DNA from: Bacteroidetes bacterium CG2_30_33_31
Lineage (GTDB): Bacteria > Bacteroidota > Bacteroidia > Bacteroidales > UBA1556
Assembly (NCBI GenBank): GCA_001872625.1
Contig: MNXP01000021.1
Coordinates: 2,052-66,051 of the forward strand
Length of the DNA: 64,000 nt
Reading direction: 5' to 3'
The notes under the pieces are model-generated. The model saw only the letters and a program-made list of their open reading frames with translations. It did not search any database and was not told the DNA's origin. The position numbers and the translations under genes were made by a program. Positions 23,171-38,884 of the stretch are shown piece by piece. How positions within the stretch are numbered: position 1 is the stretch's first letter; every line of letters begins with the position of its first letter.

Positions 23171-23647
23171 ATGGAAATATCATCATTAAAGGAAATCAAA
23201 ACTGAGCTAATTAGCTTTCCTAATGCAAAATTAGTTGACTTAATAATTCGCTTATCAAAATATAAAAAGGAAAATAAAGAGTTGCTTTCTTACTTGCTTT
23301 TTGATGCAATAGATGAGGAGCTATTTATTAAAAATGTTAAGTGCGAAATAGACTCTGAATTTAGTAATTTAAATCTGTCGAGTTGGTTTTTAGCTAAAAA
23401 GACTATAAGAAAAGTGTTACGCACAACCAATAAGTTTATTAGATATTCTAAACGTAAAAGTACAGAGGCTGAGCTTCTTATGTATTTTTGCCATAAAATG
23501 AAAGAACCTGAAATTATTTTGGGTATTGACATGACTATGAGGAACCTTTATTCGCGTCAAATAGATAGAATTAATAAGGCCATCTTGAGCCTTCATGAAG
23601 ATTTGCAGTTTGATTTTAGGCAGGAAATGGCAGAAATGAATTTATAA
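23171..23647 (+). CDS. Conserved hypothetical protein
   Basis: 158-aa ORF with KYKKENKELLSYLLF and LHEDLQFD motifs. Confidence 0.7.
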   Translation: MEISSLKEIKTELISFPNAKLVDLIIRLSKYKKENKELLSYLLFDAIDEELFIKNVKCEIDSEFSNLNLSSWFLAKKTIRKVLRTTNKFIRYSKRKSTEAELLMYFCHKMKEPEIILGIDMTMRNLYSRQIDRINKAILSLHEDLQFDFRQEMAEMNL

Positions 23648-23790
23648 AGTTTTTGAATTTGGAGAAGTTTTTGCCTCATAAAATAAATCAGATAATTGGA
23701 AATAGACTTTAACTGTGAGATTTGCGAAAAAGATATTTTCTTGTTTTTAAAGTTTTTAATATTACATACATAAGTAGATATTGATAAAAA

Positions 23791-23822
23791 TAATAATAGA
23801 CGACAATTGCCGTCTATTATTA
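23791..23822. terminator. Bidirectional terminator between convergent genes
   Basis: TAATAATAGACG-N8-CGTCTATTATTA inverted repeat. Confidence 0.7.
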
Positions 23823-23846
23823 TTAAATGAAAACACGAATAATTAT

Positions 23847-26630
23847 TTAATAGTGCCCGTTTAATAGGGAATAAATAATTAAAATAACTAATGCAATTCC
23901 AGTAAACAAGAAAATGTATCCAAATGTTCTAATTAGTTTCATCCAAGAAGCAGAAAATTCTTTCTTTACCGTAACTTTATCCAATTTTCCAGCTTTTTCT
24001 AATTCGTCATATTCTTTTGGGCGGTCTTTTTTATATTCTTCTATTGGCACATGTCCTGTAAAAATAACTGTATCCATTGGAAAAGACTCAGGGCGTAGAT
24101 GTGTGTTAAAGAAATGAATTGTAAAAATAAATCCAACGGCAAGCAAAGCTTCATCACTGTGAATTATTTGAGCCACATTTATTACCCAACCTGATAGAAA
24201 CTTGGTAAAAAATTCAGGCTGCCATAAGATTAATCCCGATAAACCAATAACTGCAACTCCCCAAAATACAGCCATGTAATCGAATTTTTCCCAATAAGTC
24301 CATCGCCCGTAATATGGTCGAGGGCCTTTCCCTAAAAACCATTTAACAGTTGCAACAAAGTCTTTAATATCTTGTTTATTAAACATTAATGAATTTTTAC
24401 CGAAGATAAATGCCATAGGTTTAATTTTTTCTTTAACCATTGTTTTGATAAGCGAAGCCACATGGAAAATAAAATATCCGAATGTTATAACGGCTGCAAA
24501 ACGATGGATATTACCAGCAATACTAACTCCTCCAACTATTTTTGCTAAATTATATGCCCATTCCATGTGAGCAAATTTTAACATCATACCAGTTAATGCC
24601 AAAAGTATAAAACTTAATATTACAAATATGTGAGTGATGCGTTGGCTCTTTTTAAATCTACGGAAATATATTGCTTCGCCTTTTGGCATTGGGTGTTTTT
24701 TCTTTTTTCGCGCTTCCATAATCGATCGTGGTATCCATAAAAGTGTATGTAAGCCAAAGAATCCAAATACACCAAGTAATAATGATGTCATTGCCCAAAA
24801 TGTATAATAAAGAACTTTGTTGTCATTGTGTGTAGCATGAGTCAAATATCCTGCAAATTCAACTGTTGCACCTTCATGGCATTTTTTACACGTCTTTACA
24901 ATATTTTTTTGCCCTACACTCGATTCAAGATTAGAAATCTTTAATATTTTATGAGCGCCATGACAATCGGAGCATCGGGCAGCTTTTAAATATCCTAAGG
25001 TATAAGCTTTTCCATGGTATGTTTCCATATAAGTCTCCGATAATTTTTTATGGCAGCTTCCACATTGAAGAGTGATTTGAGTAAGAAATTTATCTTTATC
25101 AATTTCTGTAATTGTATGTGCTGTATGACAATTTGCACAAGTTGGAAATATTTTACCTTTACTGTTATTTTTTATTGAATGATCGCTATTCATGTAATCA
25201 TCATAAATGCTTTTATGACATTTTGCACAGGTAGCAGGAACATTTTTTGGATTTACAGTTGAATTTTTATCCGATTCTTTTAATATGTTGTGTGATGTAT
25301 GGCAATCAGTACAAATAGCACTCGAAAGCAATCCTTTATCTTTTAAACCTTTGCCATGTACACTTGATTTGTAATCGCTAAAAGCATTTATTTCTTTTAA
25401 ATGTGTTTTAATTGTCGCTTTTCCGTTTTTTTGATGACATTTGCCGCACATATCAGGAATTAATGCTCTGTACGTTGGTGATGTGTCGTCATATCTTGTT
25501 TTAATTTTGTGTGTTCCATGGCAATCGGTACAATAAGGAGCATTAGATTTTTTTGCAAAATATGCCTTTCCATGATCGCTGTTAATATACACATTTGAAA
25601 CTTGTTCGTGACAATTTGAACAATCAACTTTTTTGACTGTTGCACATGGTCGTACTTTATTGTTTGATATGGTAACGTCGGAATGACATTTTGTACATCC
25701 AATACTTTTATGTACAGAATTTTGAATATCCGATTTGTCAATTTTTAAAGATATTTTTTTGCCCCCTTTGGTGGTTTTAAAGGTATTATTTCCTTCGTGA
25801 CATTTTAAACAAATTTGGTTCGAAACTGTTTCCTCAATTTTCGTAATTTTTACAATATGTGATGGATGGCAATCTGAACATGCTGGAACAGAGCCTGCCT
25901 TCTTTTCCCAAAGTTCTCGCTTAATTACTTTCGTGTGTACTTTCTCTATTCGTGCATGACATTTCATGCAAGTTTTTGCAATATTTTTGCTATTTATCGA
26001 GGAATTTGGACTTGAATGAGGTAATATTAAATGATTTTCGTGGCAATCGTTACATGTTGCTGTAACAATAAGTCCACTTTTATACAAGCCTTTACCATGA
26101 ATACTTTCACTATAATGTTTTAAAATATTACTTTGAGGAATGTTATATAATCTGGCAATTGGCGAACCTTCTTTATGGCATTTCCCGCATAATATCGGAA
26201 TATTCATTTTATAAGTTCGAGATAGTGGGTTTGTCCTGCTTAAAATATCATGATTACCATGGCACTCTTTACAGCTAGGTGCATAAGGTGCATTTAATTT
26301 CAAGGCCTGTCCGTGAATGCCTTTTAAAAATTGAAATTGTGAATTTTTATGGCAACTACCGCAATCTACAAGTTTTAAATTTTCGGGATGAGGAAATTCT
26401 TTTACTGCTGCATCTTTATGGCATGAGGTACAAAGTACTTTCTTATGTACCGACTGAGAAATCTTATTATTTACATATAATGAAACAACTTTACCATGAC
26501 TTGTTTTTGACAAGGTCTCATCACTATGGCACATAAAGCAGTCATCATTCGACTGCGAAAACAAGTTTGATGGGTGAAAGGGAAATCCTACTGCCAACAA
26601 AAATAAAAATATTCTAAACTTTTTTAACAT
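23847..26630 (-). CDS. 19-heme c-type cytochrome fused to a C-terminal cytochrome b domain (CbcL-like quinol oxidoreductase)
   Basis: Signal peptide, 19 CxxCH counted by eye, then TM domain with RITH, IHR, RWTYWEKFDYMAVFWG, IIHSDEA, IHFFNTH. Confidence 0.88.
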   Translation of the reverse strand: MLKKFRIFLFLLAVGFPFHPSNLFSQSNDDCFMCHSDETLSKTSHGKVVSLYVNNKISQSVHKKVLCTSCHKDAAVKEFPHPENLKLVDCGSCHKNSQFQFLKGIHGQALKLNAPYAPSCKECHGNHDILSRTNPLSRTYKMNIPILCGKCHKEGSPIARLYNIPQSNILKHYSESIHGKGLYKSGLIVTATCNDCHENHLILPHSSPNSSINSKNIAKTCMKCHARIEKVHTKVIKRELWEKKAGSVPACSDCHPSHIVKITKIEETVSNQICLKCHEGNNTFKTTKGGKKISLKIDKSDIQNSVHKSIGCTKCHSDVTISNNKVRPCATVKKVDCSNCHEQVSNVYINSDHGKAYFAKKSNAPYCTDCHGTHKIKTRYDDTSPTYRALIPDMCGKCHQKNGKATIKTHLKEINAFSDYKSSVHGKGLKDKGLLSSAICTDCHTSHNILKESDKNSTVNPKNVPATCAKCHKSIYDDYMNSDHSIKNNSKGKIFPTCANCHTAHTITEIDKDKFLTQITLQCGSCHKKLSETYMETYHGKAYTLGYLKAARCSDCHGAHKILKISNLESSVGQKNIVKTCKKCHEGATVEFAGYLTHATHNDNKVLYYTFWAMTSLLLGVFGFFGLHTLLWIPRSIMEARKKKKHPMPKGEAIYFRRFKKSQRITHIFVILSFILLALTGMMLKFAHMEWAYNLAKIVGGVSIAGNIHRFAAVITFGYFIFHVASLIKTMVKEKIKPMAFIFGKNSLMFNKQDIKDFVATVKWFLGKGPRPYYGRWTYWEKFDYMAVFWGVAVIGLSGLILWQPEFFTKFLSGWVINVAQIIHSDEALLAVGFIFTIHFFNTHLRPESFPMDTVIFTGHVPIEEYKKDRPKEYDELEKAGKLDKVTVKKEFSASWMKLIRTFGYIFLFTGIALVILIIYSLLNGHY

Positions 26631-27417
26631 AATTTTATTTTATTTTATATTTTTTTTATAATAACTGCAAAGCAAAAGCCAATTAAAGTTTCTAAAATAA
26701 AAATGATTTTGTAGTAATTTTATTAATATTTTTCAGATACAAAATAGTACCCTTTAAAATTTATGCTGAAAATAGAATTTTTATATAAAACCTGATTTTC
26801 AACTATTACTCAAAACCTAAATTTTTCCAGTAAAAGTTATTCGCAATTAACTAACAAATAATCAAAATGTTACATTCAAATAAATTTAGCCTTTTGGACT
26901 TATTAAGTTTTAATAAAAAGTTGACGAGCCCATTATTTTTGCTTGCTTTTAAAATTTCTACCGATATTATAAATTAATTAGTCCCCTCAATTGAATAGAT
27001 TCAAAAGCTGTTGTGTTAACCAAATTATTGAGTAAACTCATGACATTGTCAAATTTATTAGTTTTGCTGATATGCAGCCAATATTCAAAGAACTTAGTAC
27101 TTTTTATAGAAGTAATTTTTAAAATTTTAATTTGTTTTTACCTTTACCATTATGAAGTTTGATATCTAATAAATCATTTGATAGAACATTTTTCCTAAAT
27201 AGAAGCATATAAATTATAATATAATAATTCATTTCCGGCTAATTTTACAGTTGAAGACTATTCAAATTGAGCTTCATTATGCCACCAATTATTCCTAATT
27301 TTTTAATTTCATATTATTAAAATTTAATTATCTACTTATTTCTATTTTAATAGAGTTTCTTTGGTAGCTTTAAAATTCTGCACAAATTAATTTAGGAACA
27401 TGATCCTACAAGATAAA

Positions 27418-27448
27418 AGGATAGGGGTATATTATATACCCCTATCCT
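27418..27448 (-). terminator. Intrinsic terminator downstream of the EB_dh-like lipoprotein
   Basis: Perfect 14-bp stem AGGATAGGGGTATA-TTA-TATACCCCTATCCT. Confidence 0.8.
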
Positions 27449-27466
27449 AAAATGAAATTATTTTAT

Positions 27467-28690
27467 TTATTGAATAAATTTCATATAATAATTTGGTGAA
27501 ACTCTGTGTTCGTAACCATGACGCGAATTATCAAATTGTGCAACATTAAAAAGGTATTCTTTAAGGAAATCTGTGTAATTGATGTCATCATCATGTCCTG
27601 TATTCAGTTTTCTTCCAATTTCTGCTTTCCATGTACCATTACTCCAAGTAGCTCCGAAAGTAAGATCAGCTCTGCTGCCAGTTGGTACGACATGAATTCG
27701 CTCACAAACAATTGCGTTTAGTGCAGCATATTTAGGCCAGTATAAAGCTGCATCAGCATCGCTTACACCTGTTGTTGCATCTCCTACGCATTCACCACCA
27801 TCTATTTCAGCTTTTGTAATAAACATAGCATCAGCGAAATCAGTTGGATTTTTTTCCATCCATTTTGGACGAGATTTATCAGCAATACGGTTGTGTGAAG
27901 CTGCGGCGGTTCCAGCATCGCCATAACGACCACCATCTTCACCATTAGTTCCTGACCACGGGCCAACATAAGTATCGTCAACATATCCAACCATAGAAAA
28001 TGTGCCAGCAGTTACTTCATGAGACGCTGGATCAACTGTTAAACCTGAACCCGTAGCAGAAGTGACGGCACCTGCACGTGCAGCTTTACTATGCCATAAA
28101 TCGGCACGACCTGCTGATAACCAAGCATCATCAACTATAGCATCTCCGTTTGCATGTGGATGAGGATCTGATTCTTGTGGCCAATACATGTGGCATTTAG
28201 CCATACATCCTTTTGTATTATATGGATCGCCTGTAGTGGCACCCATTGGCCAATAGAAAGAAATTCGATCTTCTGACTGAACTGTGTTCGGTTTTGCCCA
28301 AGAACCAGAAGCAAAGGACCAGGATCCATTTCTAGTAAAACTTGCTGTTGGATCAGACCATTCTGATAAAATATAAATGTCTGTAGCTGTATAAACTGCT
28401 CTTAATTTAACAGTTATAGCGCTATTATAAGCATGGCATCCTGCGCAGTTATTAATTTTTGATGGGTCATTTGGTGGATTGCCTGTCTCACCTATTGCTA
28501 CTGTCAAGATTGGAGCATTCGCCCATATACCATCGACAACTCCATCCACAGTTGGTGCCGTAGATGCTTTAATAGCATTTAACTTGGTTAAATCGTATGA
28601 AGGTGGCGTCACAGGGGGGACGTCCTTTTTACAGCTTACTGTAAATGTTAAAATTGCTAATGCAATTAAAATAAAATTAAAATTTTTCAT
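27467..28690 (-). CDS. Lipoprotein with ethylbenzene-dehydrogenase-like (EB_dh/DOMON) heme domain plus CxxCH and CxxxCH motifs
   Basis: VSC lipobox, PTVDG..D..W, W.DPT, EDR, DLWH.KA.R, W..E..RKL.TG..DD, CAGCH and CMAKCH. Confidence 0.7.
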   Translation of the reverse strand: MKNFNFILIALAILTFTVSCKKDVPPVTPPSYDLTKLNAIKASTAPTVDGVVDGIWANAPILTVAIGETGNPPNDPSKINNCAGCHAYNSAITVKLRAVYTATDIYILSEWSDPTASFTRNGSWSFASGSWAKPNTVQSEDRISFYWPMGATTGDPYNTKGCMAKCHMYWPQESDPHPHANGDAIVDDAWLSAGRADLWHSKAARAGAVTSATGSGLTVDPASHEVTAGTFSMVGYVDDTYVGPWSGTNGEDGGRYGDAGTAAASHNRIADKSRPKWMEKNPTDFADAMFITKAEIDGGECVGDATTGVSDADAALYWPKYAALNAIVCERIHVVPTGSRADLTFGATWSNGTWKAEIGRKLNTGHDDDINYTDFLKEYLFNVAQFDNSRHGYEHRVSPNYYMKFIQ

Positions 28691-28850
28691 GTTAAAATAA
28701 AATTAATAGTTAAAAAAATTATAAAAAGATAAAATATATTTGATTTAGACTCTCTATATTTCTATGGAGGGTGAATTTCATTATTTTCATTTGTTTGTAA
28801 ATTTATTTTCATCAAATTTTCCTTTTAAAAGTATTTGTCGTTACCATGTT

Positions 28851-31800
28851 TTAAAATCTGTCTGAAAATACCTTAGACTTATAATATTTAATGCCTGCTG
28901 AAATTATCAGAATAAAGATAGAGATAACGATGATTTTTGAGTACAAGGGGATTGCAAAAGCTTCACCAGCGCCATAAGAATGCATTCCTGATAGGAAGTA
29001 ATTTACTCCGAAGAAAGTCATTAAAATACTTCCAAAGCCTAAAACAGCTCCTGTACTAACTACAAATGAGGATTTGAAGCCTGGAATATGTCTTAAATGA
29101 CCAATGAAAGTATAAACTAAAATGCTTACCAATGCCCATGTTTCTTTGGGATCCCAACCCCAATAACGACCCCAAGATTCATTGGCCCAAACAGCTCCCA
29201 AAAATGTTCCGATAGTTAAAAGGTATAAACCAATTATCTGCGCCATTTCAATAATTGAGGATAGCTCTTTTATTGTTGGGAGCAGCTTTTCTGTGTTTCT
29301 TTCGTTGGTGGAAAGTAATAATATATGAATTAGCAAGCCCATTAAAGCTATTAAAGCGAAAAAGCCATAGCTTGAAGTTATTACAGCTACATGTATAATT
29401 AGCCAATAACTTTTTAATACTGGCACCAAATTAGTAATTTCTGGATCCATCCAACTTAAACCAGATATCAATATTAGTATGGCTGCAAGAATTGCAGTAA
29501 GTGCCAAGCTGATTGTGGATCTTTTGGCGAATAAAATTCCAGCCAATACTGTTGCCCAAGCTATAAAAAGTGTTGTCTCATAGCCATTGCTCCATGGTGC
29601 ATGCCCTGAAATATACCATCTTAAACCTAAAATTGCTGTTTGGAGTATGAATAGTAGAACAATCAAACTCATTGCACTATTTATTATCCACTTTATTTTC
29701 AGCTTGTTATTAAAAAGTTTTACAAACAAAGAAATGAGAAGAACTAATCCAAATACAAGATATAGTTTTGAAGCGTATTTAAAGAAATTTACTTTGTTGT
29801 AAAATACCTCCGCATCAACTTTTGCTGCTGGTGGCAGCTTATTTCCGCCAAATTTTTTCTGATATGCGAAAATTTTATCTAATGCAATATCAGCATTTTT
29901 CCAGTCACCAGATTGTATAGCTGATTTCACACTGCCGTAATACTGGCCATATAAATCTATTATTAATGCTTTTTGTTCTTTGTTTCCATCCTGATTCATT
30001 TCTGTTGCTGCAATCCATTTTCCAGTGCTATCACCAGGTAAAGGGAAAAAATTAAATAAACTTCCAGTAGATAACATTAAACTCAAATTTACTTTTTCGT
30101 CAAGTTTTAGTATTTCTTTATCATATTTGGTTCTAAGGTCTGCTTCTTTTTGATATATCTGATCTACTTCAGTTTTAATTAAATAGAGATCATAACTGCC
30201 TGGGGGCAATATTTGATTTATAGAAACTCTGTCGGAATTAAAATTGTATTTCTTTATAATTTCACTATTGGAAATTTTGATAGTAGGAACGTTTTCCCAC
30301 AGTTCTTGATTCATCATCATTGATAGAAAAAGCTCTGTTGAGGTATAACCATCAATAGAATTTTCTCGCATTATCTTCCTGTTAATTTCTGAGGCAAAAG
30401 TACTTATTGGTTTTATCCTCCCTATCGGGTCAGCGATTAGCAAATGACCAAATCTTTCTGCATGTTTGTGGTTTATATTGTTTGCTGGTGGATTTTGTAT
30501 AGGACTATTTGGTTGAGCTTGGCTGCTAAAGGCGGTAAATGTGCCAAGTAAAAATATTACTGCTATTTTGCTGTTTCTGTGCAAAAGTTCTCTGAAATGA
30601 CTTTTTTTGGAAAATAAGGCTAAGAACATTCCAACGACCATTAAAGAATATCCTAAATAAGTTACAATGGTTCCTATTGGATCGTAATTAACCGATAGAA
30701 TTGTTCCGTTTTCATCTTCATCATAGGATGACTGAAAAAACCTGTATCCTTTGTAATTCAAGATGTTGTTCATAAAAATACTAAATTCTTTTATCTCCTT
30801 GCCAGATTCATCAACAAGAGTGATATTGCTTTTAAAAGATGATGGGCTCATGGAATTAACGTATCTTTCAATTATAAAATCATCGAGCTTTAATGCAAAA
30901 GGCAGCTTAATAATTTCTGATCCGTAGGATATTTTAAAAGAGGCATCCGAGAAATTAACTATTTCTTCATCACCAGCCAAATTTTCCGCACCGAAAACGT
31001 ATTGTTCCTTTTTTTCTTCTCCATAGGAAATATCTAATTTTAGTGCATTCAATGGGTAATTTCCCGAATGCTCAGTCATCGAAACAACTTTTATTATTGC
31101 CGATGGATAATAATTTTTAATGGCGAAGCTATTATATGCTACTTGGTATAAAATATTATTAAGTGTTTTATGAATTGAATCAGGTGCAAGTTTTTGATGT
31201 TCCATGTTAATCATATCCACCTGATAAATCATTTCTTTGCTTTTTAAATATAGGCTATCATCTTTTTCTATGAAAATAATATCGGCATTTGGATTATCAC
31301 TAAAGGAATATGTAATATTTCCAAAAACGTAATCCTCGCCTTTATTTAAAAAAATATTTTTAAATTGAAATGAAGAATCTGAAATAGAAAGTGCGATAGT
31401 TTTCTTGCCTTCGGGTGAATCTTGTGCCATTTTAGCTGCATTCAGAATAAAATCTGATTGTTTAATTTGCAAAGTTTTGCTGCCTATATTGGTCGAAAAT
31501 GCTTCCATGGCTTTTATTCCTAAGCTGCTTTTTATTGCTTGCGAATAAATAGTTGAATCTGATTTGTTAACTGTTAGAGAAGTTTTTGCCGTGGTAATAA
31601 TATTTGAAGATTCGCCTTCTCTTATGTGCATAAATCCCTCATAACTAAAATATCTGGTAATACCTGCGCCAATAATTATTACGACGAATGAAAGATGAAA
31701 TAATATCAACGACCATTTTTTGTTTGCTAATGATTTATACTTTACCAAACTACCTAATAAATTTGCGCAAAGTAGAAAAAGCAATATTTCGAACCAACGG

Positions 31801-31940
31801 GCATCGTACACTAAGTTTCGAGCAGCATCTACACCTGTATTGTTCTCTACAAATGTGGCATATCCGATGGCTATGGCAAAAATTATAAGCAATATTGCTG
31901 AAAATGCCATCGAAAAAAAAACTGAAAATAATTTCTTCAT
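28851..31940 (-). CDS. ccsA: Fused System II cytochrome c maturase CcsBA (ResB-ResC)
   Basis: FHLSF, YRFFQSSYD, WLIIHV, GAVWANESWGRYWGWDPKETW, GMHSY. Confidence 0.95.
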   Translation of the reverse strand: MKKLFSVFFSMAFSAILLIIFAIAIGYATFVENNTGVDAARNLVYDARWFEILLFLLCANLLGSLVKYKSLANKKWSLILFHLSFVVIIIGAGITRYFSYEGFMHIREGESSNIITTAKTSLTVNKSDSTIYSQAIKSSLGIKAMEAFSTNIGSKTLQIKQSDFILNAAKMAQDSPEGKKTIALSISDSSFQFKNIFLNKGEDYVFGNITYSFSDNPNADIIFIEKDDSLYLKSKEMIYQVDMINMEHQKLAPDSIHKTLNNILYQVAYNSFAIKNYYPSAIIKVVSMTEHSGNYPLNALKLDISYGEEKKEQYVFGAENLAGDEEIVNFSDASFKISYGSEIIKLPFALKLDDFIIERYVNSMSPSSFKSNITLVDESGKEIKEFSIFMNNILNYKGYRFFQSSYDEDENGTILSVNYDPIGTIVTYLGYSLMVVGMFLALFSKKSHFRELLHRNSKIAVIFLLGTFTAFSSQAQPNSPIQNPPANNINHKHAERFGHLLIADPIGRIKPISTFASEINRKIMRENSIDGYTSTELFLSMMMNQELWENVPTIKISNSEIIKKYNFNSDRVSINQILPPGSYDLYLIKTEVDQIYQKEADLRTKYDKEILKLDEKVNLSLMLSTGSLFNFFPLPGDSTGKWIAATEMNQDGNKEQKALIIDLYGQYYGSVKSAIQSGDWKNADIALDKIFAYQKKFGGNKLPPAAKVDAEVFYNKVNFFKYASKLYLVFGLVLLISLFVKLFNNKLKIKWIINSAMSLIVLLFILQTAILGLRWYISGHAPWSNGYETTLFIAWATVLAGILFAKRSTISLALTAILAAILILISGLSWMDPEITNLVPVLKSYWLIIHVAVITSSYGFFALIALMGLLIHILLLSTNERNTEKLLPTIKELSSIIEMAQIIGLYLLTIGTFLGAVWANESWGRYWGWDPKETWALVSILVYTFIGHLRHIPGFKSSFVVSTGAVLGFGSILMTFFGVNYFLSGMHSYGAGEAFAIPLYSKIIVISIFILIISAGIKYYKSKVFSDRF

Positions 31941-32167
31941 AAGTTAAGGGGTTAATTTGAAGTTATCAAAATAGATATTTCTTGACGTTATTAAATAAAA
32001 TTAAAAAATTATAAGCATTATTAAGTTTTTACTTTTTAAATTAGAGCCTAAGTCAAAACATGAATAAGACTATAAGACATTTAGCAGCTATTAGCTACAA
32101 CTTTTATATTGTTTTCAGTATCATGTATTTATTATTCTTATAGATTTAGATTCTATTTTCAAATAAT

Positions 32168-32788
32168 CTAATGATTATCTTCATGCCAGCCAGTGATAAT
32201 TGACTTAAAATTTTTAAACGGCTTTTTCCCAATTGTACAAAAATAAATATGCACAAATAGAAAAATCGAAACAATAAAACCACCAATTATATGCAGCATA
32301 TCTGTAATAAATATTCCGCTGGTTTTTTGTAATTGATTTATTACTATCTCTGGAAACAATAATCCGAAGCCTGAAATTATTAATATTGGGAGCACTAAAT
32401 ACATTATTACCACATAGGAAAATTGCTGTAGAGGGTTAAATTTATTTGACTCATTTATGGGAAAAGGAGGGGCTTCACCTTTGAAAATTCCAATTGAATA
32501 ATAATATGATTGTTTCATCAGCTTGCTGATATATCCTTTAATTCTAAAAATATAATGCTTGCTGTTTCCCGTGATAATATTTCCAACAATAAAAATAATA
32601 TAATTAAATGCTAATAGAATTCCGCAGATATTATGAATAGCAACAGCCAAATCAAACCTCATAAATGGATATAAAGGATCTGAATATTGTAAGCTTATCC
32701 CTGTAATTATTAAAAATATTATAGCTAATGCATTTATTAAATGCCAAATACGTATTAATAATGGATATAAATATATTTTTGTGGACAT
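32168..32788 (-). CDS. Di-heme cytochrome b membrane subunit (Ni_hydr_CYTB / PhsC / CbcB-like)
   Basis: RIWH, IHN, KFNPLQ, MLH...FVHIY, SIITGW, about four TM helices. Confidence 0.88.
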   Translation of the reverse strand: MSTKIYLYPLLIRIWHLINALAIIFLIITGISLQYSDPLYPFMRFDLAVAIHNICGILLAFNYIIFIVGNIITGNSKHYIFRIKGYISKLMKQSYYYSIGIFKGEAPPFPINESNKFNPLQQFSYVVIMYLVLPILIISGFGLLFPEIVINQLQKTSGIFITDMLHIIGGFIVSIFLFVHIYFCTIGKKPFKNFKSIITGWHEDNH

Positions 32789-32792
32789 GGAG

Positions 32793-33734
32793 TTATTTTT
32801 TAAGTATTATGCGTATAAAGGCATGAATAAAAATTATTAAAAGCACTAATGAGAAAATACTAATACTTATAGAATTCAAATAGAAGTTCCTATTAGCACC
32901 AATTACAAAAGAATTCTTTAGCAAAACCCCATTAAAAAATCCGAATTTATTTCTATTTTCTTTTATGTCATGCTTATATAGCGATGACATTAATAATGAA
33001 TTATCCGAATGGCATTTCACACAAAGTTTTACCGCCTTTTCTTTTCCCAAAATGCGATGTGGTACTTTCAAGCTATCATTTTGCTGAGCATGACATTCCA
33101 AACATCTAACCTTTTTAAAATGTAATTCACGGTTTGGTAGCCAACTATGAGATTTTTCATCAATGGATGCAGTGCTATCTGACAGCAAATAGAATTTATT
33201 TTCTGTGTAATTATGACAATTTAAGCACATGTGATTACTGTAATCTACAATTTTGTTAATATCAGTTTTGTTACGGGCATTCAACTCGTAATAATGCTGT
33301 TTATGGCATCTCTCACAATTAAAATCTTCGCCCATCAATTTACCATGAATGCTCTTTTTAACTTCAACTTCAATCTCTTCAAAATGAAATTTTGCAAAAG
33401 TTTCGTCACTACCATGGCAGTCGAGGCAAGTATTTTTCGCCTCTAATTTTAATTCAGCTTTGTGTGGATAAATTTCATATTCAGTTGCATGACAATCAGT
33501 ACATTGAAAACTTTTATGTACACCTTTCTTGTAAAGAGTTTTATTTATAATAAAATATGGATTCATCCTATGATGAACTTCTTTGTCAATTACCCTATTA
33601 TAGAATTTATAATAATCATTTCCATGACACTTCAAACACTTGTTATTATTTGGTATCACAGTTTGAGTGAAAGAAGTAACAACTAAAAATAAGGCTAAAA
33701 TACTTAAGCTTAAGCTTTTGTTAATTATACACAT
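32793..33734 (-). CDS. Heptaheme cytochrome c with C-terminal membrane anchor (CbcA-like)
   Basis: Seven CxxCH (CLKCH, CTDCH, CLDCH, CERCH, CLNCH, CLECH, CVKCH), VIGANR, C-terminal TM helix containing His. Confidence 0.85.
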   Translation of the reverse strand: MCIINKSLSLSILALFLVVTSFTQTVIPNNNKCLKCHGNDYYKFYNRVIDKEVHHRMNPYFIINKTLYKKGVHKSFQCTDCHATEYEIYPHKAELKLEAKNTCLDCHGSDETFAKFHFEEIEVEVKKSIHGKLMGEDFNCERCHKQHYYELNARNKTDINKIVDYSNHMCLNCHNYTENKFYLLSDSTASIDEKSHSWLPNRELHFKKVRCLECHAQQNDSLKVPHRILGKEKAVKLCVKCHSDNSLLMSSLYKHDIKENRNKFGFFNGVLLKNSFVIGANRNFYLNSISISIFSLVLLIIFIHAFIRIILKK

Positions 33735-33751
33735 AATAATAAGTTAAAAAT

Positions 33752-33784
33752 AAAAAAAATAACTCAGAGAATTTCTCTGAGTTA
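33752..33784 (-). terminator. Intra-cluster terminator after the monoheme cytochrome c
   Basis: TAACTCAGAGA-ATT-TCTCTGAGTTA inverted repeat with a U tract on the minus strand. Confidence 0.7.
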
Positions 33785-33796
33785 CCTACTAACAAA

Positions 33797-34213
33797 CTAC
33801 TTTTTCAAAGTTCTCATATAATTTATTAAAGCCCAGCGGTCATTCTCGCTTAAAATTTTCTTTTCAAAATTAGGCATTTCGGTACGACCAACAATTGCTT
33901 CGTAATAAATTTCACCATCTGATTGTCCTTGAAATTTTGCAGATGAAAAATCACCGCAATTTGTTTTAAGTGTTTTAGATCTTGGGCTATCTCCTTTACC
34001 CAAAGCTCCGTGGCAAGTTTTGCAATATTTGCTGTAAAGTGATTTTCCAGTATCGACATTTTTACCTGGAATTGGATTTTTCATACTCTTATATTTTGCT
34101 GGAATTGTCCAGGGCGCTGCTGCTTTCTGTTGTGGTACCGAAAAAGCAAAAACAATGATTATTGCTAATGTAGAAACAGATGCAAGAACTAATTTACTAA
34201 ATTGTGTTTTCAT
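33797..34213 (-). CDS. Periplasmic monoheme cytochrome c (class I, His/Met)
   Basis: Signal sequence, NP...GK.LY..YCKTCHG, GR.EMP.F, RW.LINY.R.L. Confidence 0.9.
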   Translation of the reverse strand: MKTQFSKLVLASVSTLAIIIVFAFSVPQQKAAAPWTIPAKYKSMKNPIPGKNVDTGKSLYSKYCKTCHGALGKGDSPRSKTLKTNCGDFSSAKFQGQSDGEIYYEAIVGRTEMPNFEKKILSENDRWALINYMRTLKK

Positions 34214-34243
34214 AATGTAAATATTTAAATGATTAAAAAAAAA

Positions 34244-35164
34244 TTAAAAGCTCCAAATTCGAGTTATTACAAAACCAAATGCCATACCACCTTTAGTGAA
34301 ATCATTTACATTATGCATAATAATTTCTTGTGGCAAAATGCCAGCAGATGTTCCAATAAATATTTGGAATGCATGAGCGCTCGTAGCTATTTCCAATCCA
34401 AATGCTAAATTTGGTTTAGGAGGATTTGTAAATGGTATATTTTCTGACATAGATTTTAAATTCAATGGCATATCGTAAGTAAAAATAAATGATCCTTGAG
34501 GAGAAAATTTCATTTTGCCATTAAAATGTATCGCAATTTTATCATGTTCCATCAATGAATCAACAGCGTTGAAGTGTGTAAAACTCGCAGCGGCTTGTAG
34601 GCTTAGCCATTCATTAAATTTTCTACTAATAATGAGTTGTGAGAAGTATGCCACCCTATCCCCAAATGAATAGGTTTTTCCAAATGCTGTTTTGTTTCTC
34701 GAATCAAAAGCCATATCGCCAAATAGTGATACTGCTATTGGAATAGTATTTTTCCTAGTTTGCTCAAGAATTGTCCACTTAATATTAAAGTCGTTATACA
34801 TATTCAACTTTGAAATACCCCAACCTAATTGTAGGTTTTTCAATATCACATAGTTGATGCCCATTCTGATATTAGCTCCTGGTGCATAAATACCCCATAA
34901 ATCCCCAATACCGTTGGTGGACATAGAGCCAAAACGATGCTGAATTACATACTCCAAAGTCTTAGATGATGGAATATAGGTCGTTTGTGCATCAATTAAA
35001 TAGCCGCTGGAGAATGTTTCGCTAACGGGCTCATCTATAATAGATTCTTCTTCTATAGCTGCTGCTGTATCTACTACAACAACATTTGTATCTGTTTCAA
35101 TTTCCTGAGCTGATATTCTTGTAGAAAATATCAACAAAAAAATGGAGATTAATATTTTATTCAT
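34244..35164 (-). CDS. Outer-membrane beta-barrel protein (DUF5777-like)
   Basis: Signal peptide, QHRFG, EIATSAHAFQIF, C-terminal GFVITRIWSF. Confidence 0.75.
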   Translation of the reverse strand: MNKILISIFLLIFSTRISAQEIETDTNVVVVDTAAAIEEESIIDEPVSETFSSGYLIDAQTTYIPSSKTLEYVIQHRFGSMSTNGIGDLWGIYAPGANIRMGINYVILKNLQLGWGISKLNMYNDFNIKWTILEQTRKNTIPIAVSLFGDMAFDSRNKTAFGKTYSFGDRVAYFSQLIISRKFNEWLSLQAAASFTHFNAVDSLMEHDKIAIHFNGKMKFSPQGSFIFTYDMPLNLKSMSENIPFTNPPKPNLAFGLEIATSAHAFQIFIGTSAGILPQEIIMHNVNDFTKGGMAFGFVITRIWSF

Positions 35165-35174
35165 TTTCAGTGTA

Positions 35175-35549
35175 TTAATTGTTTTTTGCTCCTTGAGTTA
35201 TCCACATTAAAATGATTGCAGCTTGATTATCAGTGTATTTTTTCCAACTGTGTGTAGATGTAGAGGCTAAAGGATGTTGATAAAGTTTGCTTTGAGCAGG
35301 GTCAGTGAGATTCAATAAACCCATAGAAGTTATTTCGCTGTATGCTGCGCTTGCAGATAAGTCTGGCCTTGTGCTTCCAGATTTGTGGCAACTAATACAA
35401 GTGGCATCAGAAAATATAGGCACCACTTGAGTGGCAAACTTTACTGTGTCTGTGGGATTTATAATAACCCCACTTTCTTTTATATTATATTTATAAGTGC
35501 AACTTCCAAAGAATAGCATTACAAATATTATCAAAAAAATTTTTTTCAT
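35175..35549 (-). CDS. Monoheme cytochrome c lipoprotein
   Basis: FGSC lipobox, V.F...V.PIF...CISCH, WITQGAKNN. Confidence 0.8.
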   Translation of the reverse strand: MKKIFLIIFVMLFFGSCTYKYNIKESGVIINPTDTVKFATQVVPIFSDATCISCHKSGSTRPDLSASAAYSEITSMGLLNLTDPAQSKLYQHPLASTSTHSWKKYTDNQAAIILMWITQGAKNN

Positions 35550-35632
35550 TAGTATAATATTTAGTTAAGGTAATATTGAATTCATTTTTGAACTAAATTA
35601 TTCTTTATTAAATTTCAAATTGGTTTTTATAA

Positions 35633-35663
35633 AAAGGAATCAGATTATTAATCCGATCCCTTT
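35633..35663 (-). terminator. Hairpin/terminator after the hexaheme cytochrome gene
   Basis: AAAGGaATCaGATT-ATT-AATCcGATcCCTTT. The mismatches are G-U pairs on the minus strand, followed by a U tract. Confidence 0.6.
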
Positions 35664-35696
35664 CAATTAATGTTTAATAAAATTATAAGAACTTAT

Positions 35697-36725
35697 TTAT
35701 TTCTTAGCTGCTGCTATAGAATTTTCAAGAAGCTTTTTAGCATAGTTGAAATTATGTACACCTTTACTTTTATCTTCCATAACAAATTGATAATTGTATA
35801 TAATTCCAGCATTGTCATTAGTATAAGTGCCAGTTACAACATTACCAGAAGCAGTCATATATCCTTTGGTTACTAAAATTGTTTTTAGGCTATCCAATAA
35901 ATTTTGAGTTGTAGCTTGAGTGGCAATAATTTTATTCTTCAAGGAAGTTGCATCTGCATGGCAAGAAGTGCATCCTGCTGTATTTACTGTACCAGATGTT
36001 CCATACCTCATGCCTAATTGATGACCACCAGCTTGATTACCATAAGCTTTAGCCATGTGACATTGAACGCATGAATTGCTAACCATGGTAGTATGAGATG
36101 AATTTATATAACCTGTTCCTAATTCATATCCACCAGTACCATTAAATAAGTTTCCCTGAGGGCCATGATGAGTTCCATAACGAAAGCTCGTAATTGTAAT
36201 AGTTGCAGACCCTTGAGATAAATCCCACATTGGATCAGGTTTTCTAATCTGATGACAATTAATACATAAATTAGCTTTTCCTTGATCGCTTGTAATTCCA
36301 TTTACTTTGAAAACTACAGGAGTTGTTGCTGTCAAAGCCCAATCATCTTGCGTGTAAGTTGTGTGAATTTTGTGGCATGTGTAGCAATTTTGAGGATTTG
36401 GATTGCTAATCACGCTTGCACATACTTCAGCTCCAGTTTTGAGAACTTCTAAAAAACCTTGGCTTGTATGACAAGGTGCACAATCAACGGCATTTCTTGC
36501 ATAATTTCCATTTACTGCATGCCCAGAAGCTGCCCATTGATTGCTTTTTTCGAAAATATTCTGTGAATTGTCGTGACATTTGATACAATCCACTGTCCCA
36601 TTAGTTCCATTGGTACCATTAGTACCGTTGATGCCTGCAGGACCTTGAGGTCCCTCTTTAGTGCAGGATGCTATTATTAGTGTACTTAGAACTAATAATG
36701 CTGTAATTTTTTGTAATGATTTCAC
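35697..36725 (-). CDS. Hexaheme c-type cytochrome lipoprotein with collagen-like Gly-X-Y linker
   Basis: GTG start, IIASC lipobox, GPQGPAGINGTNGTNGTNG, six CxxCH, C-terminal helical region with GVHN..YA..LL..S. Confidence 0.88.
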   Translation of the reverse strand: MKSLQKITALLVLSTLIIASCTKEGPQGPAGINGTNGTNGTNGTVDCIKCHDNSQNIFEKSNQWAASGHAVNGNYARNAVDCAPCHTSQGFLEVLKTGAEVCASVISNPNPQNCYTCHKIHTTYTQDDWALTATTPVVFKVNGITSDQGKANLCINCHQIRKPDPMWDLSQGSATITITSFRYGTHHGPQGNLFNGTGGYELGTGYINSSHTTMVSNSCVQCHMAKAYGNQAGGHQLGMRYGTSGTVNTAGCTSCHADATSLKNKIIATQATTQNLLDSLKTILVTKGYMTASGNVVTGTYTNDNAGIIYNYQFVMEDKSKGVHNFNYAKKLLENSIAAAKK

Positions 36726-36764
36726 TTGTATTTATATTTAATTTATAAATTGTTAATTAGATAA

Positions 36765-36772
36765 CAAAATTA
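36765..36772 (-). promoter_or_regulatory. Bacteroidota -7 element of the cytochrome operon
   Basis: TAATTTTG on the minus strand. Confidence 0.6.
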
Positions 36773-36793
36773 TTTTTTGTTTTGCATCTAACA

Positions 36794-36828
36794 ATGATAT
36801 AAATCAAAGCAAAATTGATATATATCAA
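36794..36828. promoter_or_regulatory. Tandem FNR/Crp boxes
   Basis: ATGAT-ATAA-ATCAA (36794-36807) and perfect TTGAT-ATAT-ATCAA (36815-36828), 21 bp apart. Confidence 0.8.
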
Positions 36829-36843
36829 CAATGTGAAAAAATG

Positions 36844-37545
36844 TTAATTATATTGACTTAACTTCTTGAGTTCATTTAAGTTATGTATTTCAAAATCATC
36901 TCCCTTAATTGAAATAATTTTATCTTCTTTATAGCTTTTCAGGATACGAATCATGCACTCTTTAGATAAGGCACAAAAATCTGCCAAGTCTTGTCTCTTT
37001 AATGTTGTAGTGAATTTATTACTCTTATATATAATTGTAGAAAGATAAATTATCATATCGGCAACTCTTGCATACATTGTCTTAGAGGTTAAATCGATGG
37101 TTCTATTTTTAGATTTAATGGCAAGTTGGTTTAATCTTTTTAATAAGGAAAGACTGAATTTAATGTTTGTTTCCAATACCTGTTTAAATGAATTTACTTC
37201 AAGTAAACATACCTTAATGTCTGTTATTGCTTGGAAGGATGAATGATGAATTTCATCTACATAAAGGCCTGTAATTCCAAAAATATCTCCTGGCTGACTT
37301 ATTCCAATAAGTAAGGTTTTGCCTTGGTGAGCTTCCGCAGTGATTTTTACAAACCCTTCTCTTAAGCAAGCTATATGTGTAATTGCAGTAGATTGTTTGA
37401 AAATAGTTTCACCTGCTTTAAACTCAACTTCGCGTCTATGATAAAAAAGTATTTCTTTATTTTCTTTAGATAAATCGTTATATAGCAATGGCTTAACGGG
37501 GCAGCAGCATTCATTGCAATTTTCGTATTGAGCACAGTCAAACAT
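36844..37545 (-). CDS. Crp/Fnr-family regulator with N-terminal Cys cluster
   Basis: MFDCAQYENCNECCC, cNMP-like domain with central VC, HTH RQDLADFCALSKECMIR. Start ATG at 37545. Confidence 0.9.
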   Translation of the reverse strand: MFDCAQYENCNECCCPVKPLLYNDLSKENKEILFYHRREVEFKAGETIFKQSTAITHIACLREGFVKITAEAHQGKTLLIGISQPGDIFGITGLYVDEIHHSSFQAITDIKVCLLEVNSFKQVLETNIKFSLSLLKRLNQLAIKSKNRTIDLTSKTMYARVADMIIYLSTIIYKSNKFTTTLKRQDLADFCALSKECMIRILKSYKEDKIISIKGDDFEIHNLNELKKLSQYN

Positions 37546-37681
37546 ATTATATAATTTTATCTTCCAGTTTATTATTGAGATTGCCAACAGACAAATAAAG
37601 CATTATTTTCCTAAATATGCAATATATTATTCAGATTCAAAAATACATTAATTTTTCTGTAGTCTAAAGAATTTTTTATTT

Positions 37682-38191
37682 TTATTTTTTTGTTTTATTA
37701 TACTGGTCATAAGTCATTGTTTTGTATTTATTCTTTGCTATATAAGAAAGATATTGCATCCATCTATCTTTTGGTTGGTAACCTTTCACAATAGTAATAC
37801 CCTTAGACTTTTCATCCATAAAAACATAGCTTGGATAGCTCAAATTTCCTTGTAAAAGTATTCGAGCAAAATCATGTACACTTCTTGCTTTGCCATAGTT
37901 TTTATTTGTAAACCTTTGTCCAGCAATAAATATAGTATCGCCACCTTCGGCATTAAATTTTACGCAATAGAAATTTTGGTTCATATATTTTACAACTGCA
38001 GGATTGGTAAATGTGCTTGCATCCATTTTTTTACACCATCCGCACCATTCAGTATAAACATCAACTATAATTTTTTTTGGTTTAGTACGTTGCAAATCAA
38101 TAGCTTGTTGAAATGTGTACCACTTTACGACTTCGGTATTATTTGAAGGCATAAAGTTTAAACTTAATAATAATAAAATCAAGATATTCAT
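37682..38191 (-). CDS. Exported thioredoxin-fold protein (DUF255/SoxW-like)
   Basis: DVYTEWCGWCKKMD, SYPS. The ATG at 38191 is preferred because the upstream extension overlaps the tpx terminator. Confidence 0.85.
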   Translation of the reverse strand: MNILILLLLSLNFMPSNNTEVVKWYTFQQAIDLQRTKPKKIIVDVYTEWCGWCKKMDASTFTNPAVVKYMNQNFYCVKFNAEGGDTIFIAGQRFTNKNYGKARSVHDFARILLQGNLSYPSYVFMDEKSKGITIVKGYQPKDRWMQYLSYIAKNKYKTMTYDQYNKTKK

Positions 38192-38203
38192 AACTACAAA
38201 AGT

Positions 38204-38239
38204 AAAAAAAAGCTGACTCAATTTGAGCCAGCTTTTTTT
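38204..38239 (-). terminator. Terminator after tpx
   Basis: AAAAAAAGCTGaCTCA-ATT-TGAGcCAGCTTTTTTT. Confidence 0.75.
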
Positions 38240-38254
38240 AAATAGTTTAGAAAT

Positions 38255-38755
38255 TTATTTAATAACGCTTAAAGCTTTTTCATAATTGGGCTCATCAACA
38301 ATTTCGGCTACTTGTTCAGTGTAAATAACTTTTCCTGTTTCATCAACTATAACTACAGCGCGACTTTCCAGACCAGCAAGTGGTCCATTTGTAATTTCCA
38401 CAGCATAGTCTCTACCAAAAGCCCCAGATCTAAAATCAGAAAGTGTATGTACGTTATCGAGACCTTCAGCCCCACAAAAACGCGCTTGAGCAAAAGGTAA
38501 ATCCTTGGAGATACAAAGTACAACTGTATTTTTTAATTTCGATGCCTCTTGGTTAAATCTGCGCACTGATGCAGCGCAGGTGCCAGTATCCAAGCTTGGG
38601 AAAATATTTAAAATTATCTTTTGTCCTTTATAATCTGCCAATGATTTAACAGATAAGTCATTCGCAACGAGTTTAAAATCAGCTGCTTTTGAGCCTATTT
38701 TAGGAAGATTTCCTAAGGTGTTAATTTTATTTCCTTTTAATGTTATTTCTGCCAT
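38255..38755 (-). CDS. tpx: Thiol peroxidase Tpx
   Basis: FPSLDTGTCA, DLPFAQARFCG. Confidence 0.96.
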   Translation of the reverse strand: MAEITLKGNKINTLGNLPKIGSKAADFKLVANDLSVKSLADYKGQKIILNIFPSLDTGTCAASVRRFNQEASKLKNTVVLCISKDLPFAQARFCGAEGLDNVHTLSDFRSGAFGRDYAVEITNGPLAGLESRAVVIVDETGKVIYTEQVAEIVDEPNYEKALSVIK

Positions 38756-38884
38756 TATACAATTAGTTAAATATGAGTGGCAAATATAAGCACATGTCTT
38801 TCGCTCATTTGTTAATAAATGTTTAATATTTTTTTAGTTCAGAAATAATTAAATTTGCCTCCTAATTTTAAAGCTATAATCTGT

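Follow-up and report, generated by a model that had tools for sequence, protein, structure and literature searches.

A conserved gene cluster for multihaem cytochromes in a Bacteroidales genome: a candidate conduit for extracellular electron transfer

The quinol oxidases of extracellular electron transfer in Geobacter are recognisable from their architecture: CbcA carries seven haems and a C-terminal helix, CbcB is a four-helix dihaem cytochrome b, CbcL joins a multihaem domain to a C-terminal dihaem cytochrome b, and ImcH combines three helices with seven haem motifs (excerpts of 10.1101/2023.05.03.539133). Proteins of the CbcL family range from 3 to 23 haems and from 416 to 1034 amino acids (aa), and the CbcL/MtoC/MtrH family is found in metal reducers and metal oxidisers alike (excerpts of PMC6295460). 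At the outer membrane the MtrCAB, MtoAB/PioAB, OmaB-OmbB-OmcB and ExtABCD systems encode a periplasmic cytochrome, a barrel and a multihaem lipoprotein together. The Mtr-type barrel has 26 strands, Cyc2 a predicted 16; in the model of Cyc2, Fe2+ must enter the pore, and Cyc1 is its class-I periplasmic partner (excerpts of PMC8406198). Here we compare with these systems a cytochrome-rich cluster of ten genes from Bacteroidetes bacterium CG2_30_33_31, a member of the Bacteroidales. The cluster occupies positions 23847-37587, on the minus strand, of a 64-kb stretch of contig MNXP01000021.1 (positions 2,052 to 66,051), the whole of which we call the window; the genome assembly (2.87 Mb in 76 contigs) is 94.6% complete, and by its named homologues it belongs to Bacteroidales in the broad sense.

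Our best reading of the cluster, held with moderate confidence, is that it serves extracellular electron transfer, outward to extracellular acceptors, with both the location of its parts and the direction of flow presumed. All ten genes lie on the minus strand, as do all proteins whose coordinates are given below for the cluster, and all are open reading frames (ORFs). In order of transcription they encode a Crp/Fnr-family regulator, the six-haem lipoprotein MHC6, the monohaem lipoprotein Lip1, a DUF5777 barrel, the monohaem cytochrome CytC, the seven-haem cytochrome MHC7, the cytochrome b CytB, a CcsBA fusion, an EB_dh-type dihaem lipoprotein and the 19-haem protein MHC19b. Together they carry 35 CXXCH motifs and one CX3CH motif, 36 in total: 19 CXXCH in MHC19b, seven in MHC7, six in MHC6, one each in CytC and Lip1, and one, accompanied by the CX3CH, in the EB_dh-like protein. 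Across the genome just 12 of 5343 ORFs of at least 60 aa contain two or more CXXCH motifs, and three of the four that contain at least six are inside the cluster.

A first-pass annotation had listed ten co-oriented genes, about 36 c-haem motifs, two cytochrome b domains, a beta-barrel, three haem lipoproteins, a local CcsBA maturase and an Fnr-like regulator, with no catalytic terminal reductase. This inventory holds at the coordinates it gave, the one correction being that the second EB_dh motif is CX3CH rather than CXXCH. Protein families were assigned by comparing Pfam and NCBIfam/TIGRFAM profile scores with the cut-offs of the models. PF01292 is matched both by CytB and by the C-terminus of MHC19b, PF01578 and PF05140 fall in one protein, and the regulator has cNMP_binding and HTH_Crp_2 domains together with FNR-like cysteines that are kept in cluster-linked homologues. 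The lipoboxes of the three lipoproteins (IASC, FGSC and TVSC) were read by eye, and the lipid cysteine is invariant in the alignments of MHC6 and Lip1. No catalytic reductase is encoded in the cluster, and none recurs among the neighbours in 80 related loci.

The cluster would thus encode a respiratory module built almost wholly of cytochromes, under Fnr-type control and induced at low oxygen, carrying electrons outward from menaquinol to the surface of the cell. Quinol would be oxidised at the inner membrane by MHC7 and CytB, which form a CbcBA-like pair, and likewise by the CbcL-like MHC19b and an unlinked ImcH-like protein. Electrons would pass to the small periplasmic cytochrome CytC, and would cross the outer membrane at a new module formed by Lip1 and the small DUF5777 barrel. 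The probable endpoints are lipid-anchored surface cytochromes, MHC6 and, in this genome, the EB_dh/DOMON-type dihaem protein; the acceptors would be insoluble or extracellular, for example Fe(III) or Mn(IV) oxides or humic substances. Haem attachment would fall to CcsBA. The argument is carried by gene content, protein architecture, co-conservation of the genes, a conserved FNR-type box and secretion tags on relatives, and from these we infer where in the cell the proteins reside, which of them are partners, how electrons cross the outer membrane, which way they flow and what accepts them.

The inner-membrane components are the most readily compared with described systems. MHC7 (32793..33734) has seven CXXCH motifs, a signal-like N-terminus, cytochrome c3/c7 Pfam matches and a transmembrane segment at residues 293-311 (transmembrane segments were assigned throughout with a crude hydropathy scale). 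Adjoining it is CytB (32168..32788), a 206-aa four-helix cytochrome b with four transmembrane segments and a PF01292 score of 86.9 bits. Seven haems, a single C-terminal helix and an adjoining four-helix cytochrome b are the features of CbcBA (Cbc5) of Geobacter sulfurreducens. The closest scorer for CytB is thiosulfate reductase cytochrome b (NF011582 PhsC, 181.8 bits, cut-off 204); according to excerpts of the CbcBA preprint, CbcB-type proteins are typically annotated as 'thiosulfate reductase' cytochrome b. The pair differs from CbcBA in its setting: the regulator is of Crp/Fnr type rather than a BccR-type sigma-54-dependent protein, the cluster has no response regulator, and MHC7 and CytB are embedded among an outer-membrane barrel and lipoprotein cytochromes. 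The likeness is one of architecture.

MHC19b (23847..26630) is a protein of 927 aa with 19 CXXCH motifs and five transmembrane segments, in which a 19-haem periplasmic domain is fused to a C-terminal FdnI/HydC-type cytochrome b membrane domain (PF01292, 36.2 bits, cut-off 30.1; TIGR01583, 46.8 bits, under its cut-off). The 19 motifs are kept in 71 of 74 full-length homologues; 18-19 further histidines of the haem domain and 7-8 of the membrane domain are likewise conserved. Compared by architecture, MHC19b resembles the CbcL/MtoC/MtrH family in domain order, its haem number and length fall within the published range, and its membrane domain contains conserved histidines; unlike CbcL, it has 19 haems rather than nine and, on the crude scale, five hydrophobic segments against mostly six. 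DNA contigs of two aquifer runs (X3 and X4) skip 123 bases in the cytochrome b part of the gene (24134-24258); this may be an in-frame length variant of related populations, the flanks of the match being short (19 and 38 letters).

A third candidate quinol oxidase is encoded outside the window, on the minus strand of contig C10 (55252-56754; locus L010, 7253-8755). This ImcH-like protein of 500 aa has transmembrane segments at residues 17-35, 44-62 and 98-116, followed by a haem region whose first motif is CX3CH and whose other six are CXXCH; residues 103-210 match TIGR03153 NrfH at 52.3 bits, under the cut-off. The three helices at the N-terminus, the NrfH-like region and the count of seven haem motifs are all features of ImcH. 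Of 80 related loci, 42 have a homologue within the cluster, and genomes G030, G032 and G035 have it together with MHC19b. In the present genome the gene is unlinked and lacks an FNR box, and the CX3CH form of its first motif differs from ImcH, for which His/Gln ligation has been described. An NrfHA-type nitrite reductase operon was considered and rejected: the 500-aa cytochrome that many related loci share has no Cytochrom_C552 match, its build is ImcH-like, and no NrfA was found in the genome. Judged by published architecture (excerpts of 10.1101/2023.05.03.539133), MHC7 with CytB, MHC19b and the C10 protein match CbcBA, CbcL and ImcH one by one, and the inner-membrane parts of CbcL and CbcBA type that the first-pass annotation had proposed are borne out to that extent.

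Two further proteins complete this half of the cluster. CytC (33797..34213) is a class-I monohaem cytochrome c of 138 aa (PF13442, 44 bits; PF00034, 43.4 bits) and is likely a periplasmic carrier. The CcsBA fusion (28851..31940), a system II cytochrome c synthase, matches PF01578 at 128.9 bits and PF05140 at 71.9 bits and falls just short of TIGR03144 (176.3 bits, cut-off 187.6); it is one of three Cytochrom_C_asm matches in the genome.

The outer-membrane components have no such clear counterparts. Lip1 (35175..35549) is a monohaem lipoprotein of 124 aa with one CXXCH motif and a lipobox. It has no Pfam match itself, while 7 of its 35 homologues match Cytochrome_CBB3 and Cytochrom_C; in the alignment of 35 sequences C17 and C51xxC54H55 are invariant and H100 is nearly so. 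Lip1 always adjoins the barrel, and the two are separate genes in all loci seen. The barrel (34244..35164) is a protein of 306 aa with a signal peptide and a strong match to DUF5777 (PF19089, 244.4 bits, cut-off 23.1). Weak Pfam co-matches (15 of 105 members of the family also match OMP_b-brl) and feature neighbours, which are transporter-like barrels (Phenol_MetA_deg, HAEPLYID), identify DUF5777 as an outer-membrane barrel. The ESM Atlas model has a pTM of 0.80, and a crude amphipathicity count gives about 14-16 strands. The barrel profile has no relative in the PDB by sequence at E up to 10, and a search for DUF5777 in a limited library turned up no paper. Elsewhere (loci L106-L135) the family is usually found in the order monohaem cytochrome c, tRNA_anti-like protein, YceI, DUF5777, a context that suggests a general envelope redox role; in the subfamily of the cluster Lip1 holds the neighbouring place next to DUF5777 instead.

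With the Mtr and Pcc systems this arrangement shares the joint encoding of periplasmic cytochrome, barrel and multihaem lipoprotein. It departs from them in barrel size (about 14-16 strands against 26, or 20-26 for large porins) and in the barrel's partners, which are monohaem rather than 8-10-haem cytochromes, and the Pfam comparison shows no homology to MtrB or OmbB. An Mtr/Pcc-type porin, as the first-pass annotation would have it, is therefore not what a barrel of 306 aa, with this crude strand count and monohaem neighbours, represents. The combination of a single c-haem with a small barrel, followed by a class-I periplasmic cytochrome, is closer to Cyc2; unlike Cyc2, the haem domain is a separate lipoprotein gene with no fusion, and larger candidate surface cytochromes are encoded as well. 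A sequence relation to Cyc2 was not seen, no search having been aimed at one. Lip1, DUF5777, MHC6 and the EB_dh protein are outside the Mtr, Pcc and Cyc2 families and form an uncharacterised outer half.

We offer, as a tentative and rather doubtful proposal, that Lip1 and DUF5777 make up a Cyc2-like cytochrome-porin in two pieces, by which electrons would cross the outer membrane in a novel manner: the single lipid-anchored haem domain would dock in or on the small barrel and link cytochrome c of the periplasm to surface cytochromes exported as lipoproteins or by type IX secretion. If it were true, redox exchange across the outer membrane would be a widespread and unrecognised trait of Bacteroidota, DUF5777 being present in about 40% of sampled genomes and usually beside a small cytochrome. 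A second module of this kind is found on the minus strand of contig C45 (locus L009, 9242-13778), where a cytochrome c of 123 aa, a DUF5777 protein of 285 aa, a Lip1-like protein of 124 aa and a PSCyt1/CBB3-type cytochrome of 272 aa follow one another. Ahead of the module stands a C_GCAxxG_C_C redox protein of 394 aa with two CXXCH motifs and a type IX secretion system (T9SS) tail.

MHC6 and the EB_dh protein are candidate surface cytochromes. MHC6 (35697..36725) has six CXXCH motifs, a match to the MtrC/MtrF domain II/IV (PF22113, 40 bits, cut-off 30) and, after the lipobox region, a collagen-like Gly-X-X tether. Among 28 aligned sequences the lipobox cysteine and all six haem motifs are invariant and six further histidines are invariant or nearly so. 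A second conserved histidine for every haem, in MHC6 as in MHC19b, leads us to expect electron carriers rather than catalysts. By sequence the PDB offers weak matches to NrfA and octahaem nitrite reductases (E 0.015-0.2), and PF02335 is matched at 21 bits, below its cut-off. A structural neighbour of MHC6 is a cluster of 1184 members, 98% of which carry a T9SS tail (TM 0.76 by query). Contig C5 (5741-6190) holds a stretch resembling MHC6 (32% over residues 10-149) whose match contains TGA and TAA; this weak paralogue may be a broken copy or a frame artefact.

The EB_dh/DOMON-like dihaem c lipoprotein (27467..28690; PF09459, 80 bits, cut-off 33.3) has its haem motifs in CAGCH and CMAKCH, and has no PDB relative by sequence. 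In an alignment of 25 sequences the CXXCH is nearly invariant and GCMxKCH invariant. T9SS tails (PF18962) occur in 27 of 116 homologues, and others have PKD, collagen or Big_2 domains. The T9SS tails on relatives or structural neighbours of both proteins therefore argue for a surface location. Evidence of another kind comes from the residues that follow the lipid cysteine. Lipoprotein export in Bacteroidota is signalled by K-(D/E)2, Q-A-(D/E)2 or S-D-D-D-D just past this cysteine (excerpts of PMC5080379). The corresponding residues are C-T-K-E-G in MHC6, C-K-K-D-V in the EB_dh protein and C-T-Y-K-Y in Lip1, and C-x-K-E/D-G, which fits that signal in part, is kept in 27 of 28 MHC6 homologues. 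Taken together, these features suggest that cytochromes reach the cell surface through type IX secretion and as exported lipoproteins.

In order to ask how far the genes travel together, related loci were collected from MHC19b-based stretches, the 80 best were kept and all their ORFs were clustered; 32 of them extend at least 6 kb to both sides. The search for the MHC19b family, which is large and uncharacterised, scored 7999 proteins, of which 3881 had E values of 1e-10 or less; the best 120 are at least 63% identical, and a relative of MHC19b is encoded in 439 of 450 candidate genome stretches. No named isolate appears among the MHC19b clusters. The canonical order is Fnr, MHC6, Lip1, Barrel, MHC7, CytB, MHC19b, then in brackets, as it were, the 500-aa ImcH-like protein and a 165-aa four-haem cytochrome, and finally CcsBA; the run from MHC6 to MHC19b (MHC6-Lip1-Barrel-MHC7-CytB-MHC19b) is unbroken in 19 of the 80 loci. 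The closest relatives have a shorter order, Lip1-Barrel-(CytC)-MHC19b. Among the 32 fully flanked loci the barrel is present in 27, Lip1 in 23, the four-haem cytochrome and CytB in 22 each, the ImcH-like protein, Fnr and MHC7 in 21 each, MHC6 in 20, CcsBA in 11 and CytC in 3; one locus has none of them. Other recurrent neighbours in the 80 loci, besides the four-haem soluble cytochrome and the ImcH-like protein, are sets of NrfD, FeS and four-haem proteins, two-component regulators, a ChaN-type protein and unrelated genes.

In a genome of the same genus (G006) Fnr, MHC6, Lip1, Barrel, CytC, MHC7, CytB and CcsBA are colinear at 47-65% identity, with unrelated genes at both ends. Outside the genus, in four other families, the core is near-complete in G025, G017 and G032 and partial in G022. 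When 300 other genomes were drawn evenly from the order, 66 had MHC6 relatives; the EB_dh protein is a rarity (3 of 300), and MHC19b is patchy: it occurs in none of 14 same-genus genomes and in 3 of 26 from other families (3 of 40). Because the core is colinear in relatives, and MHC19b and EB_dh are patchy, the unit under selection is the eight-gene core from Fnr to CcsBA. In the present genome EB_dh and MHC19b have joined this core, on the downstream side of CcsBA, and the ImcH-like gene stays on contig C10. The co-conservation on which the original interpretation depended is therefore seen, both in the 19 unbroken runs and in the colinear core of G006; the claim that the cluster is self-contained fails, the ImcH-like protein being encoded on another contig and the four-haem soluble cytochrome, a companion of the cluster in 48 of the 80 loci, not being found in this genome. 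Locus L105 (G114:C139) presents a variant in which an EB_dh-like lipoprotein (C-S-D-D-D-D-D after the lipid cysteine, no CXXCH) is followed by a divergent Fnr and then by MHC6, Lip1, Barrel, a TAT-type FeS protein, NrfD, an unknown protein of 296 aa, CytC, MHC7 and CytB. A recent horizontal island was also considered for the cluster and rejected: its GC content resembles that of the window around it, a genome of the same genus has the core in the same order, and in another family (genome G032) the core likewise adjoins a homologue of the thiol peroxidase Tpx.

FNR of the E. coli type has a characteristic pattern of cysteines, in which four ligate a [4Fe-4S] cluster, and recognises the consensus TTGAT-N4-ATCAA. 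The regulator of the cluster (36844..37587; PF00027, 59.4 bits; PF13545, 35.4 bits) shares with it the Crp/Fnr fold, an N-terminal C-x2-C, a central cysteine and a site of this sequence; it differs in scoring far below the cut-off of the NCBIfam Fnr model (52.6 against 228 bits) and in the variable position of the fourth cysteine. Among 38 cluster-linked homologues Cys24 and Cys27 are kept in 97% and Cys127 in 100%. The frame opens with TTG at 37587; the ATG at 37545, 14 codons inside, is the likely start and fits the N-termini of the homologues. In the gap of 118 bp between the Fnr and MHC6 genes there are two FNR-type boxes (36794..36828): that at 36815-36828 is exact and that at 36794-36807 has one mismatch. 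The exact box is the only one in the window and one of 11 in the genome. With up to one mismatch allowed, 15 of 30 MHC6 genes in related loci have a box in the upstream region, 8 of them exact, compared with a background of 207 in 5201 windows of 250 bp (4%). We read this as an FNR-like oxygen sensor that probably controls at least the MHC6-Lip1-Barrel-CytC unit, and the Fnr control that had been proposed for the cluster gains credence from the cysteines of the regulator and the conserved box. The idea that exact boxes mark a genome-wide anaerobic regulon was found to be unsupported, the other intergenic boxes preceding housekeeping-type genes.

Several observations weigh against an outward conduit. 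MHC6 matches the export signal in part only, with one acidic residue and then glycine, and neither MHC6 nor the EB_dh protein of the window itself carries a T9SS tail. The barrel, at 306 aa and some 14-16 strands, is small and therefore unable to sheathe a multihaem cytochrome as MtrB does. DUF5777 is present in 166 of 400 other sampled Bacteroidota genomes, and because it is so widespread, usually with YceI, a tRNA_anti-like protein and a monohaem cytochrome, it is not specific to metal respiration. Multihaem cytochromes are few in the genome (four with at least six haems), and a caa3-type oxidase, cytochrome bd and one molybdopterin enzyme offer other possible sinks. No FNR box was found upstream of MHC19b, the ImcH-like gene or the C45 module, and the other intergenic exact boxes of the genome precede purH-like, hybrid kinase and tRNA methyltransferase genes, which are of housekeeping type. 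Transcription is weakly hinted at by one RNA library, in which four short contigs are identical to parts of the EB_dh gene, the CytC/barrel junction and Tpx; their depth is low (2.4-4.3) and carry-over of DNA is possible, and RNA run X24 reaches 9 of 30 bins, the uncovered parts being uninformative. On the other side, the second Lip1-like/DUF5777/cytochrome c module on C45 lies beside a T9SS-tailed dihaem redox protein and counts in favour of the outward conduit. The first-pass annotation saw each layer from quinol pool to surface encoded here: for the inner membrane this stands, the barrel is not of Mtr or Pcc type, and exposure at the surface and an extracellular acceptor are at present predictions.

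Three other explanations have to be weighed against the same evidence. One, which we consider unlikely, though seriously to be reckoned with, is that the network is confined to the periplasm: the lipoprotein cytochromes would face the periplasm, MHC6 or an unlinked enzyme would reduce a soluble acceptor (chelated Fe(III), nitrogen or sulfur oxyanions, or selenite), and the barrel would be the channel for the substrate. The ordinary small-channel size of the barrel and its transporter-like feature neighbours fit this, as does the partial match to the export signal; the faint likeness of MHC6 to NrfA and octahaem nitrite reductases, the score of CytB closest to thiosulfate reductase cytochrome b, and a molybdopterin enzyme with an FeS partner on contig C57 likewise lend it support. 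A plain solute channel, however, does not explain the strict pairing of Lip1 with the barrel. Nor is a catalytic subunit linked in the window or recurrent in the 80 related loci; no NrfA was found in the genome, the second histidine conserved for all six haems of MHC6 leaves no open site apparent, and the T9SS tails on relatives and structural neighbours of MHC6 and the EB_dh protein send their cargo outside.

For a conduit running inward, which we regard as improbable, the electron donor would lie outside the cell: Fe(II), Fe(0), reduced humics or a partner cell. The part of a Cyc2-like oxidase would fall to Lip1 with the barrel, delivery to the caa3 oxidase or another reductase would be the task of CytC, and the b/c complexes would feed quinones in reverse. 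The juxtaposition of monohaem cytochrome, small barrel and class-I cytochrome c mirrors Cyc2/Cyc1 (excerpts of PMC8406198), the CbcL/MtoC/MtrH family occurs in metal oxidisers as well as reducers (excerpts of PMC6295460), CytC belongs to the cbb3-subunit-III/c-class type, the genome encodes a caa3-type cytochrome c oxidase, and the habitat is aquifer or groundwater. Sequence cannot tell direction, but the Fnr-type activator and FNR box point to induction where oxygen is scarce, and the CbcBA-, CbcL- and ImcH-like modules cluster in relatives in a manner that parallels the outward pathway of Geobacter; a link to carbon fixation or nitrate reduction was not seen, no search having been aimed at either. 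That the cluster serves instead for envelope redox maintenance or the handling of haem and iron (electrons for repair, for peroxide or superoxide handling, or for reductive iron uptake) seems to us very improbable. It adjoins Tpx and a thioredoxin-like gene, Tpx is adjacent again in G032, a ChaN haem-uptake gene occurs in 6 of the 80 related loci, and DUF5777 is found elsewhere with YceI, which in E. coli is paired with cytochrome b561. Set against these associations, about 36 haems, as many as three complexes of the quinol-oxidase type and a CcsBA of their own represent a high cost for a housekeeping function, and the recurrent partners are respiratory-type modules. Electron transfer outward to the cell surface is the reading that we retain.

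That no such system was known in Bacteroidota, as had been supposed, is true in part. Homologues of CbcBA, CbcL and ImcH are already in print: five CbcL-type homologues and one of ImcH were counted in Bacteroidetes by Zhong and Shi 2018 (excerpts of PMC6295460), and the Discussion of the CbcBA preprint, as excerpted, places cbcBA homologues in Prolixibacter, Marinilabiliales and Labilibaculum and treats them as a possible marker of extracellular electron transfer. For the cluster as a whole a literature search in a limited library found no description; PMC11475568 and 10.64898/2026.05.27.727921 contain no mention of Bacteroidota clusters, and excerpts of PMC7914226 deal only with general Bacteroidales metabolism. 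The inner-membrane half is thus of a known kind, already spotted in Bacteroidetes, and the outer-membrane module is uncharacterised. Anoxic sediments, aquifers and bioelectrochemical reactors are rich in Bacteroidales, yet these bacteria are usually regarded as fermenters. The cluster is conserved and easily recognised, its six-haem marker occurring in roughly one in five of the genomes sampled from the order. Its combination of Geobacter-type quinol oxidases with a previously undescribed outer-membrane module would give mineral or humic respiration in this group, or electron uptake, a concrete genetic basis that can be tested. It would also give a first functional context to DUF5777 barrels and to EB_dh-type c-cytochromes with secretion tails.

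The cluster is divided by an AT-rich, non-coding spacer of 830 bp (26631-27466) between the EB_dh gene and MHC19b. The spacer contains no ORF of at least 60 aa, no Rfam match and no remnant of a cluster protein; its sequence is unique in the genome, with no repeat copy. A promoter scan placed in it one strong sigma-70-like site (TTGACA-17-AATAAT, 27052-27024), and a terminator-like hairpin is found at 27448-27418, 3' of the EB_dh gene. Since the spacer and this hairpin set the first nine genes apart from MHC19b, the cluster comprises two or more transcription units. A second terminator-like hairpin lies 3' of CytC (33787-33757). An Rfam scan of 23500-38900 gave nothing over threshold; a sub-threshold match to the L20 leader at 38198-38283 (29.7 bits against 58.7, E 0.021) shares its position with a terminator-like hairpin and probably arose by chance.

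Directly upstream of the regulator (37682-38755) are the thioredoxin-like gene, of DUF255/TlpA type, and the gene for Tpx; in the same-genus genomes, whose contigs are short, the Tpx/TlpA side of the flank was not found. DNA nearly identical to that of the window occurs in 23 groundwater or aquifer DNA runs, which may represent one campaign and two of which may be the source. About 13 kb from the cluster, at 9980-11083, the window also encodes a dihaem cytochrome c peroxidase (CCP_MauG, 126 bits).

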